IMG/VR virus record: IMGVR_UViG_3300014202_001521
Location: 66,931-130,930 of that record
From: a virus
DNA: 64,000 nt
Direction: 5' to 3' (one strand)
The translations under genes were made by a program, and so were the position numbers. Under the pieces are notes generated by a model. It worked only from the letters and a program-made list of their open reading frames with translations, ran no database searches and had not been told where the DNA came from. Shown here piece after piece: positions 1,915 to 55,982 of the stretch. Position 1 is the stretch's first letter, and each line of letters opens with the position of its first letter.

Positions 1915-2661
1915 ATGTTCCTAGAATTTGTCAATCGTAAAAGAGCCAAGAAATTCAACGAAGATTTGATCCGTGCAACGGAAGGTAAGTCTGATTTGAT
2001 GCAAATTGGCACAGAAAAGGACGAACAGATATTCAAAGTTGTCATCAACCCAAAAGCGAAACAAACGATCTGTTTTATCGCAGGGATACACGGAAATGAA
2101 CAGGCTGGACCTTACGGAGTGTTGTCGTTCCTAGAGAGTGGATATCAAGTTCCTAGTCACAAGCGGGTTATCATTATTCCGTTAGCCAATCCGATTGGAT
2201 TTCAAAAGGATAAAAGAGAAAATGCCGATAATGAAGACATTAATCGGCATTTTCTCGACAAGGAACTAAAAGGTGAGTGCAAAATTCTATGGGATGCTCT
2301 CAAACAAGAAAATATAGATTTGCTCCATACGCTTCATGAAGACCCTTCTACAGATAAGTTCTATTTGTATTACACTCACCATAAAAAACTTGCCGAGGAC
2401 TTAAGAGAGCTAGCTAAAAAATATTTCGATATTCAAGAAAAAGGTGAGGCTTTGTCTAAAGACGAAAAACAGGGGCAGGGAGATAAAGTCCATAATGGTT
2501 TAGTCCCACTGCCCCATGTAGTTCGAGGCTGTCTCGAAGACAAAGCAATTATCGAACGAGCCATACCGTATATTACTACGGAAAGTCCTGGCAAGGTTGA
2601 TCTTAAAAAGAGAATCGCTTACAACAAAGACGCTATTAAAATGTCAATTAATTCATTTTAA
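1915..2661 (+). CDS. M14-type zinc carboxypeptidase / succinylglutamate desuccinylase-aspartoacylase family
   Basis: AGIHGNEQAG, NP.G...KREN...DINRHF, LHED, terminal TESP motifs. Confidence 0.75.
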   Translation: MFLEFVNRKRAKKFNEDLIRATEGKSDLMQIGTEKDEQIFKVVINPKAKQTICFIAGIHGNEQAGPYGVLSFLESGYQVPSHKRVIIIPLANPIGFQKDKRENADNEDINRHFLDKELKGECKILWDALKQENIDLLHTLHEDPSTDKFYLYYTHHKKLAEDLRELAKKYFDIQEKGEALSKDEKQGQGDKVHNGLVPLPHVVRGCLEDKAIIERAIPYITTESPGKVDLKKRIAYNKDAIKMSINSF

Positions 2662-17552: not shown

Positions 17553-17675
17553 TGGCCAAGGCTGGAATTGAACCAACTCCTACGGAACAGAGGTAAGGTG
17601 CTTACTATGATGTGGGCATTTTCAGCCTCACGACACCTTACTTTTTCCGCCGCTCTGCCGTTGAGCTACTTAGCC
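17553..17675 (-). ncRNA. 123-nt tRNA-like gene with ~50-nt structured expansion of the anticodon arm
   Basis: Acceptor GGCTAAG/CTTGGCC plus A73, D arm GCTC-AACGGCA-GAGC, T arm GTTGG-TTCAATT-CCAGC; stem GCGGA/TCCGT encloses GTAAGGTG/CACCTTAC and an inner hairpin. Confidence 0.8.
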
Positions 17676-31148: not shown

Positions 31149-32375
31149 TCAGAATTGCTCCGCTTCGGTTGACTCTTTAAGAGCCGTTAGTTTGGACCCT
31201 ATGGTTTCCGCAACCATATCAAAATACCCTACGCCAACTTCCCTTTGGTGCTTAACCGCTGTATATCCTTGATCTTGTAAATCAAACTCCTTCTCCTGCA
31301 CATCCACATAAGCTTCCATATCTCTACGGTTGTATTCATAAGCCAAATCAAACATACCTTGATTTAGAACATGGAACCCAGCCAATGTTATAAACTGGAA
31401 CTTATAGCCCATCGCCCCTAGCTCTTTCTGGAAATCGAATATTTGTTTTTCATTTAGCTTTTTCTTCCAATGGAAACTTGGAGAACAATTATAGGCTAAT
31501 AGCTTGCCAGGATACTTGGCGTGAATGCCTTCTGCGAACTTTTTGGCTTCTTCCAGGTCAGGATGGCTGGTTTCACACCACAGCAGATCGGCATAAGGAG
31601 CGTAGGCTAACCCCCTGGCAATAGCCATGTCAATGCCGCCAGTGATATTACAAAATCCTTCTTCGGTTCTCGCACCCTTGACGAAAGGTTTATCAATATC
31701 ATCTATATCTGAAGTTAGAAGTTTAGCTGAGTCAGCATCTGTGCGTGCGATAATGACTGTTGGCACATTGAGAACATCAGCGGCAAGACGTGCAGCTACT
31801 AGGGTTTTAATGAAATGAGAGGCAGGTATTAGTACCTTGCCTCCCAAATGTCCACACTTTTTGGCCGATGATAATTGATCTTCAAAGTGTATGCCTGCTG
31901 TTCCTGCTTCTATCATCGCCTTTGTTAGTTCAAAGGCGTTTAGCGGTCCACCAAAGCCAGCTTCAGCGTCTGCCACGATTGGCACCCAATAGTCAGTGGT
32001 AATTTTGCCTTCCATCCACTGAATTTGGTCAGCACGTCTTAAACAGTTATTGATTCTACGCACTAGATTGGGAACACTATTGACAGCGTATAGAGATTGG
32101 TCTGGATACATTTGCATTGAGTCATTATTGTCGGCGGCGACTTGCCAACCAGAACAATAGATTGCTGGTAATTTAGCTTTGGCCATTTGCATAGCCTGAT
32201 TGCCTGTTACCGCTCCCAAAGCATGAACATAAGGCTTGTCATGCAACCTTTCCCAAAGTTTCTCTGAAGTTAATCTCGCTAAGCTGTGTTCTTCGACAAA
32301 AGAACCTTGAAGTTTTCTAACCTGATCTATATTGTAAGGACGCTCAACACCATGCCAACGGGTTTGTGTTTCCAT
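31149..32375 (-). CDS. aceA: Isocitrate lyase
   Basis: KKCGHLGGK catalytic motif, [32 protein letters not shown]. Confidence 0.97.
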
Positions 32376-32431: not shown

Positions 32432-32863
32432 ATGATAAACTTTATCAGATGGATTAAAATAAGAGAAGCATGGAATCAAAGCACCGTATGGACACCAGAA
32501 CGTGTTGCTCAACAAAATGGTGGTCGTAGTCTTAACCAACCAGAAGATACCAATAAGGTAATTGGCAGATTTAATCCAGTTTTTCCAGAATCCCGTGGAA
32601 AAGCTGAAATTTTGGCAGACCTTGTTTCTAAAGCTACAGGCATACCAACACCAGATTTACTTTCTAGCAGAAAACAAGGGACGGCTGACGCAAGATGGAT
32701 ACTTTATGCTTTATTATTAGACGCTGGTAAAATATCTGGCGCAAAAGTTTTACAAATGATGGGTCAAAGAAATTTAATCCCAAGAAAATTACTAGCTGCT
32801 CGTAATAGCCCATTATATCAAAACCTACTAGCACAATCTCATGCCGCTTTAGTCGCACGCTAG
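32432..32863 (+). CDS. Hypothetical protein with capsid-targeting-like N-terminus
   Basis: MINFIRWIKIRE; ATAAATA upstream. Confidence 0.55.
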   Translation: MINFIRWIKIREAWNQSTVWTPERVAQQNGGRSLNQPEDTNKVIGRFNPVFPESRGKAEILADLVSKATGIPTPDLLSSRKQGTADARWILYALLLDAGKISGAKVLQMMGQRNLIPRKLLAARNSPLYQNLLAQSHAALVAR

Positions 32864-33435
32864 ATTATATTTCTAAATGTCAAATTAATCCTTGGACCTA
32901 CAACTGTAGTAGTCTTTGGAACACAATGCTGCCAGTGATGTTGCATTGTGCCATCCATGATTAATAGACTACCGTGTTTGAGTAGATATTCCTTCTTTTC
33001 ACGGGATTTGATATGTCGAATCTGGAACAGTCTCTCAGCCCCTAATGAGATTGATGGCACTGTTGGATTCTGTCCTAGCTCGCGTTCATTATCGGAATGC
33101 CAGCCAATAGAATCCTTGCCATATCTGTAATAATTGAGGAGAAGACTGTTAAACGGTTTGCCTGTTTCTTTTTCGACTCGCTTTTTAACTTCCTCTAAAT
33201 ACCAAGGCCAAGGAAGTGAGTCGTGAGATACGCCCGAATAAGCGTAATTAACGCCTGGATCGGAGTAGTAAGCGGTCATGCGTGGAAAGAAGTTACCATA
33301 AAAGGTCTTCTCTTGTTTCCAAGTGGTTTTTAATTTTAATACCTGAAATAGCTTATCAGCAATTGGCTGTGTGAAAAAGTCAGGTATGTAAAGTAAAATT
33401 CCGCCGTCAGTTAGTTCTTCTTGCGTAGTTTCCAT
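32860..33435 (-). CDS. AlkB-family 2OG-Fe(II) dioxygenase (ALKBH2/3-like)
   Basis: NSLLLNYYR.GKDSIGWHSD, WQHCVPK, RINLTFR. Confidence 0.92.
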   Translation of the reverse strand: METTQEELTDGGILLYIPDFFTQPIADKLFQVLKLKTTWKQEKTFYGNFFPRMTAYYSDPGVNYAYSGVSHDSLPWPWYLEEVKKRVEKETGKPFNSLLLNYYRYGKDSIGWHSDNERELGQNPTVPSISLGAERLFQIRHIKSREKKEYLLKHGSLLIMDGTMQHHWQHCVPKTTTVVGPRINLTFRNII

Positions 33436-36462: not shown

Positions 36463-36534
36463 CCTCGATTCTGTGTTCGTCAGGGCTTTCACCCTGGCAT
36501 GGCCCTGGCCTTTCGGCTGTTCCATGACTAACAG
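36463..36534 (-). ncRNA. Candidate structured RNA 3' of tRNA-Leu(CAG)
   Basis: Nested stems CTGT/ACAG, GTC/GAC, ATGG/CCAT, GCC-GAAA-GGC, AGGG-TGAAAG-CCCT. Confidence 0.45.
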
Positions 36535-36609
36535 TGACCACCGTGGGATTCGAACCCACACATTCCACGTTCTGAGCGTGGCGACTCCTGCCAATTGGTC
36601 TAGGTGGCC
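36535..36609 (-). tRNA. tRNA-Leu(CAG) with short (5-nt) variable loop
   Basis: GGCCACC/GGTGGTC, CCACG-CT-CAG-AA-CGTGG, V=AATGT, A73. Confidence 0.9.
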
Positions 36610-38992: not shown

Positions 38993-39749
38993 TAGTGTTC
39001 GGGCTTACGTCGATCCGAACGCTTTAACTTCATGATGGCCGACCTATAGCAATCCAACCAATATTCGTGTTGGAAGTTGTCAGGATTCCAGCCACTGAGA
39101 ATCTTTTTGATGTAATCGTCCCACTTCATCTTGTTCTTGGCACAATTATCATCCAAAACTCGTTCTTCAAAAACCGTTGTTAGTTCATCAAGGATATCAA
39201 CTAGGGGTATTTTCTTGCTCATTTTTATTTCCAATATAATTACCGTCGTCGTCCCAATCGTCATCGTTTCTTGGCTTGACTATCATCAATACTAATTTGT
39301 CTCCGCACCACACAGGAGCGCGAAGCGTCGTCCATTTTTCATGTGTGTATTTTGTGTTCAATTGAAGGTATAAGTCTTCTAGGGAATCTGCACAAAGCAC
39401 TTCTGAATCTATGCGTTTTCCTAGTTCTTTCAATTCTTTAAGTGTAATTGGTTCCCAACTCATTACCAACAATCCTCTTCATATTCATTGCGCTGTGAAG
39501 CATAGTAGTCTTCCCATGCTTCCTTTTCGTATTTCGCTTCTAGCTCTCTATCTCTGATTTCTTGCAGTGATGGATAGCCATTGGCTTTCCTGTCCCTGCC
39601 AGGGTTAATCAGTTTTGAAAGCTGTCGTTCTGGATCGGTTGCATGAGCGTCCCCGTAGTAGAACTCATATTTGCATTCTGGACAATAATCTCTGCGGGGG
39701 TCATTACCTAAATTCGGATGGTCGCAAAAATCCATTATTAAACTCCTAG

Positions 39750-39824
39750 TAGCACGGAAGGGATTCGAACCCTTACTGCCCACGTTTTAAATGTGGTGAC
39801 TCCTGCCAGTTGGTCTACCGTGCC
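39750..39824 (-). tRNA. tRNA-Leu(UAA) with short variable loop
   Basis: GGCACGG/CCGTGCT, CCACA-TT-TAA-AA-CGTGG, V=GCAGT, A73. Confidence 0.85.
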
Positions 39825-40019: not shown

Positions 40020-40107
40020 TGGCCTTGGCGGGATTCGAACCCGCACCCTCTTACGAGGACAACGTTCTCAACGTTGCGCGTTTACCTGTATGTTACACCA
40101 CAAGGCC
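40020..40107 (-). tRNA. tRNA-Leu(GAG), long V arm, enlarged D loop
   Basis: GGCCTTG/CAAGGCC, CAACG-TT-GAG-AA-CGTTG, A73. Confidence 0.9.
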
Positions 40108-40192: not shown

Positions 40193-40690
40193 ATGTTTTT
40201 CTTCGCTTCGTCAAAAAATATCTTCGAGCATTCAGACAGGTGCGTTTTTGTATATCTTTCTCCTGTCTTTATCCAGAAGAAATTGTAAATTTCTCTAATG
40301 GCTTGCACCAAGCCATCCTCGGTCAACTCACCTCTGTAAGCTGCCAAGCGAAAACTTGGTCAGCCATATTCAGGGCATTGTAGTCCTTGAGTTAAAGGAA
40401 GCCTATAGCCATCCCTCCAAGCCCAACATCGCGGATTGTTCCATTCCTGAATCCGCTTTCCAACTACAATTAGTTCTGTAGGTGTCATTTAACCTCCATA
40501 GGAAAAGGTTATATATCGTATGCTTCCCATTTCTTGTTATATTCTGCTCGCCATACTGAGTATCGTTGTTTTGGACCACGATATCCTAGTCGCTCTTTAT
40601 TACGGATTTTGAATCCACATTCTGTGACCATTTTCCTGCGAACGAACTTATAGAACCCAGGATGGTCTAATATTCCATATTTATTCATAG

Positions 40691-40765
40691 TAGCACGGGT
40701 GGGATTCGAACCCACACTGTCCACGTTCTAAGCGTGGCGACTCCTGCCAATTGGTCTACCGTGCC
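40691..40765 (-). tRNA. tRNA-Leu(UAG) with short variable loop
   Basis: GGCACGG/CCGTGCT, CCACG-CT-TAG-AA-CGTGG, V=ACAGT, A73. Confidence 0.9.
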
Positions 40766-41982: not shown

Positions 41983-42144
41983 GTTACTTATCCTTACAAA
42001 AATACCATATTACAAATCCTATAGCAACAAAAACTAATGTAAAAGCCGCTGCCTGCAAAAACATTTCTGGTGTAATCGGCGGATTATCATAATGGTTCTT
42101 ACCAGGCCCGCTTAATGCCTGATTTATAATTACAGTATCCATAG

Positions 42145-42219
42145 TAGCCACCGTGGGATTCGAACCCACACTGTTACCCTTTTGAGAGGTACGACTCCTA
42201 CCAGTTGGTCTAGGTGGCC
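42145..42219 (-). tRNA. tRNA-Leu(CAA) with short variable loop
   Basis: GGCCACC/GGTGGCT, TACCT-CT-CAA-AA-GGGTA, V=ACAGT, A73. Confidence 0.9.
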
Positions 42220-42480: not shown

Positions 42481-42481
42481 A

Positions 42482-42657
42482 ATTTGGTAGCAGGCTTAAA
42501 GTGCTACTCGGACTATGACCTTGTTTTTCAGACGGAATTTCACCGCCAGGCCAGCCGTCCGCACCCTATTGCTTGCGTGCGAACCGCCTTACTACCAAAT
42601 AACTCGTATCCCTATTCCGTTAGACGAGTCCACTAACGGCTGAGCGGATTGCTCCAC
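42482..42657 (-). ncRNA. Candidate novel structured ncRNA (~175 nt): GNRA hairpin, H-type pseudoknot and multibranch domain
   Basis: GTGGA-GCAA-TCCGC; CCGTTAG/CTAACGG with loop GACTCGT pairing ACGAGTT; 14-bp closing helix ATTTGGTAG..AGGC/GCCT..CTACCAAAT enclosing GTTCGCAC/GTGCGGAC and a GG-TGAAA-TT-CC T-loop. Confidence 0.65.
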
Positions 42658-42667
42658 TTGGGTTTAG

Positions 42668-42756
42668 CGGAAGGTGAGGGAGTCGAACCCTCAGCACCCG
42701 TGAGGGTGCGCTAGCTTAGCAGGCTAGTGTGACGAACCGATAGTCACCTACCTTCC
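42668..42756 (-). tRNA. tRNA-Ser(GCU), first gene of the array
   Basis: GGAAGGT/ACCTTCC, CTAGC-CT-GCT-AA-GCTAG, long V arm, G73. Confidence 0.95.
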
Positions 42757-42769
42757 AAGGCAAACCGAA

Positions 42770-42782
42770 TTTTCAAAGAACA
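42770..42782 (-). promoter_or_regulatory. rrn-type boxA antitermination site
   Basis: TGTTCTTTGAAAA, 13 nt before the first tRNA and just after the attenuator terminator. Confidence 0.65.
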
Positions 42783-42814
42783 GAAAACTTTGGTACAATT
42801 GCAATTGCGGGTAT

Positions 42815-42860
42815 AAAAAAAAAGAAACCCGCCGTGACCTTTCAGCCACGGCGGGTTTCT
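42815..42860 (-). terminator. Attenuator intrinsic terminator of the tRNA array
   Basis: AGAAACCCGCCGTG-GCT-GAAA-GGT-CACGGCGGGTTTCT followed by a further T8; perfect 14-bp stem. Confidence 0.92.
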
Positions 42861-42879
42861 ACCCCTGTTTCCGCTAAGC

Positions 42880-42963
42880 CTATTCGGTCCATCTTCCTGC
42901 GCTCGACAACGAGAGCGATAATGAATAATAACTGGACAGTAGGTTAACGGAGAAAGTATGCAC
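42880..42963 (-). CDS. Attenuator leader peptide MHTFSVNLLSSYYSLSLSLSSAGRWTE
   Basis: SD AAGGA, GTG start; codons 8-21 CTA CTG TCC AGT TAT TAT TCA TTA TCG CTC TCG TTG TCG AGC; TAG 19 nt before the terminator stem; below ORF-track cutoff. Confidence 0.88.
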   Translation of the reverse strand: MHTFSVNLLSSYYSLSLSLSSAGRWTE

Positions 42964-43071
42964 CTTAAAGTTTCCTTTTAGTTAATATATGCAGCAAGCC
43001 GCAAATATTTTCGTGAAAATCATCAACTTCCCTTATCTTACGCCGAAAATTCGGTTTGTCAAGAAGATTTT

Positions 43072-54110: not shown

Positions 54111-54341
54111 TTCAATTTGTTGCATTTGCGGTCGAAAAACCCCTGAATGCGAAAGCATCTCAGAGCATGGCTACATGAAAAATAAGTTAGGGTTTTCGGA
54201 AGTTACTATTATAAGCGGTTATTATCCTAATGGATATCATTATTCAATACGCAAGATAGATTTTTGCCCTTCTTGTTCCAAGAAATCTTATACGATAGAG
54301 GATTTAAAGACTATCGGCAACTACAATCAGTGGAGCTACTG

Positions 54342-55982
54342 ATGGCAAAGTATATTGCAATTTTAGGTGGTGTAATTAGTGGCACTGGAAAGGGTATTTC
54401 CGCTGCTTCTATTGGTTTTCTATTGAGTTTGCGTGGTCATAAGGTTCAACCTATTAAGTTTGATCCTTATTTCAACACAAACGCAGGAGTCCTTGCACCT
54501 AGAGAACATGGCGAAGTGTTCCTCTGCGATGACGGCAGCGAAACGGATTTAGATTTAGGACACTACGAACGTATTATTGGCGTACCAGTTTCAGGCAAGA
54601 ATATCATGACCAGCGGTACGCTCTACAAGGAACTTCTCAATGAAGAAGAAGAGGGTAAATATCTTGGTCAGACTGTCCAGGTTATTCCACATCTTACAGA
54701 TAAAATACAAGCCCGTCTAACCGAATTAGGAAAGGACACAGAAATTGTAATTTGTGAGATTGGTGGCACCGTTGGCGACCTGGAAAGCGGCCCCTACCTA
54801 GAAGCTATACGCCAATTCAAACAAAAGAATTGGGACGATGTTTTGATTATGTTGGTTGGCCCTATTCTATGGATTCCAACAATCAAAGAGTTTAAGACCA
54901 AACCACTGCAAAACAGTGTCAAGGAAATGCAGTCATTCGGCTTGCAGCCTGATATATTGCTTTGCCGTATTGATCGTGAAATGCCAACGAAGATGTTAGA
55001 CAAAATCGCCAATCTAACCAATGTGCCCCGTGAAGCGGTCTTTGATGCTCCTGACGTTAAGACCATTTACCAAGTCCCAATCGAGTTTTATAACCGTCAT
55101 ATTGACGACCTTATCGCTGATAAGTTCCACTTAAAGCGTAATGGCTGTCGCATCCACAAGTATCGTGAGCTAGTAGAAAAGTATGTAGATCATGAGGATA
55201 TGCCTGTAGTGACCATAGCCATTGTAGGCAAGTATGATAACTGCGACGAAGCTTATCTTTCTCTAAAAGAAGCTGTTTATCATGCTGCGGTCGAACATGA
55301 AGTAAGGGCCGATATCAAGTGGATTAATGCCAAAGAACTTGAGCAAGCCAAGGATATGCGTGGTGTATGGAAGTATTTCGAAGACGTGGATGGCGTAATC
55401 GTTCCAGGTGGATTTGATTCATCTGGCGTCGAGGGTAAGATTCGTGCCATTAAGTATGTCCGCGAGAAAAAGATTCCTTTCCTGGGCATTTGTTTAGGTT
55501 TGCAATGTGCTGTTATTGAAATTGCTCGCAATCTGTGCCACTTGGAAGGTGCCAATAGCGTTGAGTTCGATAAAGAAACCAAGCATCCTGTTATTCACTT
55601 TGTAGAAGGGCAGGAGAAGATTAGGAAGAAGTCAGGGACAATGAGGTTGGGTGCTTTTGATTGTGAATTAGTCAAGGGCAGTATTATACATGAATTGTAT
55701 AAGAAGTCTTTAATTAGTGAAAGACACCGCCATCGTTATGAAGTTAATTCTGAGTATGTTAGTTCTCTTGAGAAAGCACAATTTATAACTTCTGGAGTAA
55801 ATCCTGACACCAAGTTAATTGAAATGATGGAGTTAGAGCGTGGTACTAATCAGTTCTTCGTAGCTACCCAGGCTCACCCTGAGTTTAAGAGTAGATTAGG
55901 GAGTCCTGCCCCACTGTTTATTGGTTTAATTCAGGCGGCTATTAAATCAAAAGGCGAAAAAGCTCCTGCTAATACTACATAA
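54342..55982 (+). CDS. pyrG: CTP synthase
   Basis: GGVISGTGKG, DLDLGHYER, EIGGTVGD, KTKPLQ, GICLG, HRHRYE, QAHPE. Confidence 0.97.
   Translation: MAKYIAILGGVISGTGKGISAASIGFLLSLRGHKVQPIKFDPYFNTNAGVLAPREHGEVFLCDDGSETDLDLGHYERIIGVPVSGKNIMTSGTLYKELLNEEEEGKYLGQTVQVIPHLTDKIQARLTELGKDTEIVICEIGGTVGDLESGPYLEAIRQFKQKNWDDVLIMLVGPILWIPTIKEFKTKPLQNSVKEMQSFGLQPDILLCRIDREMPTKMLDKIANLTNVPREAVFDAPDVKTIYQVPIEFYNRHIDDLIADKFHLKRNGCRIHKYRELVEKYVDHEDMPVVTIAIVGKYDNCDEAYLSLKEAVYHAAVEHEVRADIKWINAKELEQAKDMRGVWKYFEDVDGVIVPGGFDSSGVEGKIRAIKYVREKKIPFLGICLGLQCAVIEIARNLCHLEGANSVEFDKETKHPVIHFVEGQEKIRKKSGTMRLGAFDCELVKGSIIHELYKKSLISERHRHRYEVNSEYVSSLEKAQFITSGVNPDTKLIEMMELERGTNQFFVATQAHPEFKSRLGSPAPLFIGLIQAAIKSKGEKAPANTT

Follow-up and report, generated by a model that had tools for sequence, protein, structure and literature searches.

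A candidate leader-peptide attenuator ahead of a class II tRNA operon in an uncultured phage

A 64,000-nucleotide stretch of the virus record IMGVR_UViG_3300014202_001521, referred to here as the window, carries on its minus strand a compact leader unit that directly precedes an operon of tRNA genes for leucine, serine, and tyrosine (class II tRNAs). The unit comprises a promoter, a 27-codon open reading frame (ORF), an intrinsic terminator, and a motif resembling boxA (Table 1). It probably works as a ribosome-mediated attenuator through which transcription of the class II tRNA operon follows the availability of Leu, Ser, and Tyr aminoacyl-tRNAs. An initial annotation of this DNA had proposed an attenuator with the layout of the trp, his, and ilv leaders, in which the control codons correspond to the tRNAs located behind the terminator. 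The computational checks described below support that proposal. All of the elements listed in the annotation are present on the minus strand where they had been placed, as judged by direct reading and by ORF, tRNA, and terminator calls.

The codon content of the leader ORF provides a first line of evidence for this function. Codons 8 through 21 form an uninterrupted run of 14 Leu, Ser, or Tyr codons, identical to the run given in the initial annotation. Together they match every anticodon of the array, namely UAG, CAG, UAA, GAG, and CAA for Leu, GGA, GCU, UGA, and CGA for Ser, and GUA for Tyr. This is the longest run of its kind in any frame of the 103-kb contig that holds the window, where the next longest is nine codons, and the longest runs in 20 shuffles were seven to nine codons. 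A spacer of 19 nucleotides separates the stop codon from the terminator stem, whose pairs number 17 in our count and which is followed by a U tract. The leader is single-copy, with no second occurrence in the contig. An independent promoter between the terminator and tRNA-Ser(GCU), the first gene of the array, would speak against attenuation; a promoter scan of the window detected no sigma-70-like promoter at this location. Downstream from tRNA-Ser, no strong minus-strand terminator was found for ∼7 kb (to ∼35600), and the class II array extends to at least 41631 and probably to ∼36183.

The unit is also present in 13 other metagenomic huge-phage contigs. These homologs come from LR756511, a 595-kb uncultured huge phage, and from contigs in IMG/VR, JGI, ENA, Logan, and NCBI. 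LR756511 is the sole match among phage GenBank records. Its leader region is 73% identical to that of the window and likewise lies before a terminator and 11 Leu, Ser, or Tyr tRNAs. A scan of IMG/VR with a 14-mer yielded mostly chance matches, and patterns for the N-terminus of the peptide, the boxA-like motif, and a conserved RNA segment beginning at the stop codon (region 2) added just L104 and the truncated L138. Of two metagenome scans, the first returned none and the second returned L142 and L143, and L145–L154 were reached via homologs of the 137-amino-acid protein encoded directly upstream of the leader. Wherever a homologous contig continues past the unit, the tRNAs behind it are only Ser, Leu, or Tyr. 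In all homologs, the promoter, an element absent from the initial annotation, is kept in the form of TTCTTGACAA followed by an extended −10 element. The small hairpin in the 5′ untranslated region (UTR) persists in L001 with an altered loop.

The distribution of the unit shows that it is specific to the class II operon in this lineage, because none of the 30 other tRNA blocks of LR756511 is preceded by a terminator or by a codon-matched ORF. In L125, a terminator precedes a tRNA-Thr gene, but no matching leader accompanies it.

The leader ORFs were compared among eleven intact and distinct leaders, which are 26–28 codons long. Insertions and deletions within the ORF all span three bases (they lie at alignment columns 8, 13, and 19), whereas indels of one or two bases are present in the noncoding stretch between region 2 and the terminator. 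The alignments also keep the Shine–Dalgarno (SD) sequence, its spacing, the GTG start codon, and the position of the stop codon. Leu, Ser, and Tyr account for 52%–59% of leader residues versus 17.6% in the long ORFs of the contig, and the GTG frame holds 14–16 codons for these amino acids versus 5–9 in each other frame. All ten anticodon classes are represented in nine of the eleven leaders, and the remaining two each lack one Leu class. In any one leader, five Leu codons would cover all of the Leu classes by chance with a probability of ∼0.03, and the corresponding probability for all of the Ser classes is ∼0.34.

In agreement with a check proposed in the initial annotation, relatives preserve the leader at the level of codon class while individual codons turn over. 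In L149/L151, and independently in L001, the sole CTA is located at column 16, an unpaired position. Other copies have CTA at column 8 or 9 and TTA at column 16, and L001 has TTA in column 8. Both classes therefore stay represented through the exchange of CTA and TTA between columns, which in L149/L151 involves columns 9 and 16.

These codon data also bear on the idea that the ORF is an ordinary small-protein gene, in which case the array would be expressed by constitutive leak-through or from an unrecognized phage-specific promoter and the match in composition would be coincidental. The full set of promoter, SD, ORF, and strong terminator would suit such a gene, as would a peptide (MHTFSVNLLSSYYSLSLSLSSAGRWTE) that is fairly conserved overall, and the promoter scan covers the sigma-70 type, which leaves room for promoters of other types. 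However, in every homolog the three enriched amino acids are precisely those served by the tRNAs of the array. The peptide varies in its C-terminal third, searches of Pfam and PHROG gave no protein family match, and the stop codon is located inside an RNA segment that has two mutually exclusive pairing partners. We consider a coincidental small-protein gene to be quite improbable.

The alternative pairings of the leader RNA provide a second line of evidence for attenuation. Minimum-free-energy (MFE) folds of the first five homologs share an architecture in which helices P1, P2, and P3 are followed by the terminator. P1 is formed by region 1, which lies within the ORF, and region 2. This pairing occurs in the MFE folds of all copies and corresponds to the anti-antiterminator that had been predicted. 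A second pairing predicted at the same time, CTGT with ACAG, is not what folds, and P2 (GUCCA:UGGAC) forms in its place. P2 is invariant, and P3 is kept with differing sequences, such as CGUUGCU/AGCAACG in L001. Region 2 is the most conserved segment outside the tRNAs. The predicted stabilities range from −14 to −19 kcal/mol for P1 and from −26 to −37 kcal/mol for the terminator.

Covariation is evident in both of these structures. When 10 sequences were analyzed with RNAalifold, eight pairs of the terminator showed compensatory changes and zero were broken, a result that bears out the terminator covariation proposed as a check in the initial annotation. In P1, the pair 32:108 is C:G in five sequences, U:G in three, and U:A in two. 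Moreover, the two leaders that end in TAA rather than TAG both have region 1 altered to GCUUA, which pairs with UAAGC.

Folding of the transcript before the right arm of the terminator has been made reveals the third structure, an antiterminator in which region 2 pairs with the left arm. A pairing of this kind had been proposed; the one predicted here is longer than first described and consists of three 4-bp segments (GGCU:GGCU, GCGG:CCGU, and GGGU:ACCC) that make up a 12-bp gapped helix. The antiterminator can form in every copy, with predicted energies of −9 to −15 kcal/mol. The terminator arms of L142 and L143 have CGC/GCG in place of CCG/CGG, and there a slip of one nucleotide (AGCG:CGCU) preserves the middle segment. 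Pairing is seen in 54 of 60 cells in the proper register and in 21–34 after the partner has been slid. Region 2 has just two G-to-A changes, and both affect the two G:U pairs of the antiterminator. This conserved helix is best described as a plausible candidate pairing.

The effect of a translating ribosome on these pairings was modeled by masking its footprint. In a permissive model, the antiterminator is favored when the A site is positioned at codons ∼4–15. In a second model, RNA located 5′ of the ribosome is barred from pairing across the ribosome. Under this restriction the antiterminator is favored across the whole ORF, and region 2 pairs with a fraction of ∼0.45–0.8 of the left-arm bases, compared with 0.0–0.36 when there is no ribosome or when the ribosome is at the stop codon. 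Thus a mask on the control codons frees region 2 for the left arm, a result that agrees with the folding check proposed in the initial annotation. Region 2 opens with the stop codon, and a terminating ribosome would therefore cover this region; in the model, a mask at the stop returns left-arm pairing to its baseline. The three expected states are seen in eight of nine copies, with L153 giving a weaker result. In these models, the masked folds are the three states of a trp-type attenuator.

A simple scheme can accommodate these features. Host RNA polymerase would start at the sigma-70 promoter, and a ribosome would translate the 27-codon leader. When Leu, Ser, and Tyr aminoacyl-tRNAs are ample, the ribosome would reach the stop codon and cover region 2, such that the terminator forms and transcription ends before tRNA-Ser. 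When any class is scarce, the ribosome would stall on the control codons and thereby keep region 1 and the inner helices open. The freed region 2 (GGCU..GCGG..GGGU) would then pair with the whole left arm (ACCC-GCCGU-GGCU), and polymerase would read through. If the leader were not translated at all, region 1 would sequester region 2 and termination would follow. After read-through, the boxA-like element may render polymerase processive over the tRNA array. The net result would be negative feedback that allows the phage to make class II tRNAs on demand.

Several points weigh against this interpretation. Translation of the leader, stalling of the ribosome, conditional read-through, and the physiological trigger, which may be a host tRNase or starvation, are steps that we infer. 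In addition, the first five codons of the leader show no nucleotide changes, a sign of constraint on the RNA rather than on the peptide. In L145 (3496–3520), a 2-nucleotide deletion in codon 5 moves the Leu/Ser/Tyr frame off the GTG, keeps the RNA pairs (including P1), and creates a long open frame extending across the terminator. This deletion may be genuine or may reflect faulty assembly; L146, which is closest in sequence to L145, is in frame.

Both the invariant codons and the L145 deletion would be compatible with a structured leader RNA that is not translated and that serves as a stability or processing element or as a protein- or tRNA-binding switch, with the ORF arising as a by-product of P1–P3. 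This possibility gains from the fact that conservation in the unit is highest in the three-tier hairpin and in region 2, and from codons 6 and 7, which change amino acid (V/A and N/S/I, respectively) yet retain the RNA pairs. However, the enrichment of Leu, Ser, and Tyr is confined to the GTG frame, the remaining indels in the ORF are multiples of three despite the 1- and 2-nucleotide indels in flanking noncoding parts, and the SD, start, and stop are conserved. Coverage of the codon classes also outlasts the turnover at column 16, an unpaired position, and the RNA matches neither the T-box nor any other Rfam family. We regard an untranslated function as unlikely.

Two further points concern the antiterminator of the proposed attenuator. 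Its complementarity is no better than that of shuffled region 2 and left-arm sequences or of genomic 22-mers (P = 0.02–0.4), so this part of the original claim is not significant when taken alone. Furthermore, the permissive footprint model allows region 1 and region 2 to re-pair when the ribosome stalls at codon 16 or beyond. Given this statistical weakness, translation of the leader might control the operon in a manner that does not involve pairing of regions 2 and 3, for example by amber read-through into the terminator or by effects on Rho or on the access of RNase. The leader stops at TAG in nine of the eleven sequences, even though TAG is the rarest stop codon in the long ORFs of the contig (6 of 45), and a second in-frame TAG is found two codons after the leader stop. 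LR756511 also encodes a tRNA with the anticodon CUA, an amber reader (L127, ∼179.6 kb, reverse strand). On the other hand, the compensating changes in region 1 of the two TAA leaders argue that the triplet is constrained by pairing and not by the identity of the stop codon. The contig shows no evidence of recoded stop codons, since reading TAG as sense opens no more long ORFs than does reading TGA as sense, and the standard code was kept. The layout of three structures is already complete without such a mechanism, which we judge to be very unlikely.

Two final points concern the region downstream from the terminator. Insertions of ∼60–330 nucleotides between the terminator and the first tRNA are found in several relatives (L148:992–1262, L151:2798–2965, and L143:1530–1611), and these might carry their own promoters. 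The L148 insertion is bordered by two copies of the boxA-like motif, and the L151 insertion holds tRNA-like fragments. Transcript data from two sediment metatranscriptomes include contigs that span the leader, and in one of them the depth is 40 versus 18 for the upstream gene. Metatranscriptome contigs, from whose set a filter removes some records, are absent over positions 42505–42832, which extend ∼330 nucleotides past the terminator, and DNA runs cover this same stretch. The gap in RNA coverage could be an artifact, as DNA contigs likewise break at the hairpin. Overall, the coverage is weak evidence that the leader RNA is terminated.

The boxA-like motif that follows the terminator is conserved in the homologs as the core TCTTTGA[AC]AATTYGG just before the first tRNA, and it occurs once in the window. 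Its placement between the attenuator and genes for structured RNAs is like that of rrn-type boxA, the loading site for NusB/NusE, in rRNA leaders. The evidence on TGTTCTTTGAAAA consists of sequence likeness and conservation, and the motif also resembles the −35 region of the leader promoter. It appears to equal the rrn boxA of the Firmicutes/Mollicutes type. The string GTTCTTTGAAAA appears in papers on mycoplasma and phytoplasma, presumably as part of primers for the 16S–23S spacer. The element may act in processive antitermination. A perfect 14-nucleotide inverted repeat, formed by CAAACCGAATTTTC in the promoter spacer (43045–43058) and GAAAATTCGGTTTG in the segment preceding tRNA-Ser (42760–42773) on the minus strand, was considered as a part of the mechanism and dropped, since it is not conserved in the homologs.

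Leader-peptide attenuation is a textbook mechanism for amino-acid operons. The layout of the phage unit matches that of the enterobacterial attenuators, including the multivalent leaders of ilvGMEDA (Leu/Val/Ile) and thr (Thr/Ile) as well as trpL, hisL, leuL, and pheL. As in the ilvGMEDA, thr, and trpL types, a promoter-proximal short ORF with control codons (for more than one amino acid in the multivalent cases) is followed by an intrinsic terminator, the 1:2, candidate 2:3, and 3:4 structures would be mutually exclusive, and the stop codon is placed where a terminating ribosome would mask region 2. In energy, the helices are comparable in order of magnitude to those of the trp attenuator. 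In contrast to the ilvGMEDA and thr systems, the phage unit regulates tRNA genes rather than biosynthetic enzymes, and its control codons sample every isoacceptor class instead of repeating one codon. The signal would also differ, being the decoding capacity that is supplied by the operon's own products. The unit has no sequence homology to these leaders, and none of the Rfam leader families reaches its gathering score; among the best scores, Thr_leader (RF00506) reaches 20.2 bits versus 55, and Leu_leader (RF00512) scores 18.7 bits versus 50 and does so on the opposite strand.

Two other systems invite comparison. In the pheST attenuator of Escherichia coli (pheM), a leader rich in cognate codons attenuates a component of the translation machinery for the same amino acid. 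The product of pheST is a synthetase and its leader has a single control amino acid, whereas the phage unit governs the tRNAs themselves and has three. T-box riboswitches share with the phage unit the aim of using tRNA status to switch between a terminator and an antiterminator ahead of tRNA-related genes. However, a T-box binds uncharged tRNA directly and without a ribosome, and the phage unit has neither a specifier loop nor a T-box motif; the Rfam covariance model for the T-box gave no match even at E-values up to 10. The initial annotation knew of no described attenuator that controls a phage tRNA array. Our full-text literature searches likewise turned up no account of tRNA genes preceded by a leader-peptide attenuator, and the paper on huge phages does not mention one.

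If the attenuator functions as proposed, the products of the operon would close the loop and create a direct homeostat for decoding capacity, and huge phages would regulate translation-related genes by sensing the speed of ribosomes. The arrangement also offers a sequence signature for finding similar units, which is a mini-ORF composed of the codons that are read by the tRNAs behind a terminator. Because the unit has a sigma-70 promoter and an intrinsic terminator, it would be testable in laboratory E. coli despite belonging to an uncultured phage.

The genomic setting of the operon clarifies the restriction to class II. The virus record is 103 kb in length with 41.8% G+C, and it is a fragment of a phage genome of ∼0.6 Mb. 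This assignment is made because the nearest public relative is LR756511 (the SbcC-like proteins of the two share 69% identity), because the protein encoded directly upstream of the leader is also found on a 623-kb contig, and because related IMG/VR contigs are rated as 7%–8% complete. All 18 tRNAs identified by ARAGORN in the record are specific for Leu, Ser, or Tyr. LR756511 has at least 60 tRNAs, of which ∼48 are class I and are located away from the leader operon, at 176–291 kb; nearly all of its Leu, Ser, and Tyr tRNAs are grouped at 427–437 kb. The segregated class II operon is thus real, and the impression of a phage with class II tRNAs only is a product of the partial genome.

It is natural to ask why such a device would serve class II tRNAs in particular. 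One speculative answer is that huge phages collect their entire set of tRNAs with long variable arms in a single operon, governed by an attenuator that samples each Leu, Ser, and Tyr isoacceptor, as an inducible countermeasure to a class-specific threat during infection and not as a mere supplement for codon usage. The threat might be a nuclease, from the host or a rival, that recognizes the long variable arm, or it might be the shut-off of host class II tRNAs by the phage itself. We regard both the countermeasure and these particular threats as doubtful. The operon also includes Leu tRNAs that have no long arm. Bacterial Schlafen was considered as a class II-specific nuclease, but the one characterized example cuts Lys, Met, and Ala tRNAs and gives no support to this idea.

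Table 1. Features of the leader unit and its surroundings (window coordinates unless a contig is named)
Feature	Coordinates	Strand	Description or basis
Promoter	43062–43035	−	Sigma-70 type, TTGACA-16-TAAGAT, A-rich upstream; promoter scan
5′ UTR hairpin	42990–43003	−	Small, UGCGGCUUGCUGCA; all five MFE folds
SD	42977–42973	−	AAGGA, 8–9 nucleotides 5′ of GTG; direct reading
Leader ORF	42963–42880 (TAG 42882–42880)	−	27 codons plus TAG, GTG start, peptide MHTFSVNLLSSYYSLSLSLSSAGRWTE
Control codons 8–21	42942–42901	−	14 Leu/Ser/Tyr codons in a row
Region 1	42939–42956	−	ORF nucleotides 8–25, CUUU-C-UCCGUUAA-CCUA; P1 partner of region 2, anti-antiterminator
P2	42937–42933:42891–42887	−	GUCCA:UGGAC; inner helix of leader hairpin
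P3	42917–42913:42904–42900	−	CGCUC:GAGCG; inner (apical) helix of leader hairpin
Region 2	42861–42882	−	UAGGCUUAGCGGAAACAGGGGU; first triplet is the stop codon
Intrinsic terminator (regions 3 and 4)	42860–42823	−	17 bp, 10 G-C, loop GAAA
Terminator U tract	42814–42822	−	
boxA-like motif	42782–42770	−	TGTTCTTTGAAAA, 13 nucleotides before first tRNA
tRNA-Ser(GCU)	42756–42667	−	First gene of class II array; ARAGORN and Rfam
Structured RNA with core GCGGTTCRCGCAWGAGCAATAGRGYGYGGAYGGCTGG	42481–42666	−	
Structured RNA with core GCGGTTCRCGCAWGAGCAATAGRGYGYGGAYGGCTGG, homologs	L001:6369–6493; L104:2571–2687; L125:10790–10905; L126 near 2364–2385		
Short tRNA-Leu genes	36534–36609, 39749–39824, 40690–40765, 42144–42219	−	
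Auxiliary metabolic genes	31149–32375 (−), 32860–33435 (−), 54264–55982 (+)		

Several additional features of the operon and its neighborhood were noted. A structured RNA of ∼120–185 nucleotides, with a long closing stem and the conserved core GCGGTTCRCGCAWGAGCAATAGRGYGYGGAYGGCTGG, is located after the first tRNA of the class II operon. This RNA has no Rfam match, and two IMG/VR contigs that are unrelated in other respects carry the same core within their class I tRNA arrays. Among normal Leu tRNAs of 82–85 nucleotides are four tRNA-Leu genes of 75–76 nucleotides, which are too short for a long variable arm; such short genes are also present in L104, L145, L148, and L153. Two matches to the Rfam tRNA model have no ARAGORN call (40020–40107 and 17553–17675, minus strand), the second of which spans 123 nucleotides. 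Nearby auxiliary metabolic genes encode an isocitrate-lyase-family protein, CTP synthase, both subunits of ribonucleotide reductase, and an SbcC-like ATPase, and a gene for an AlkB-like 2OG-Fe(II) oxygenase adjoins tRNA-Leu(CAA) in the same neighborhood.

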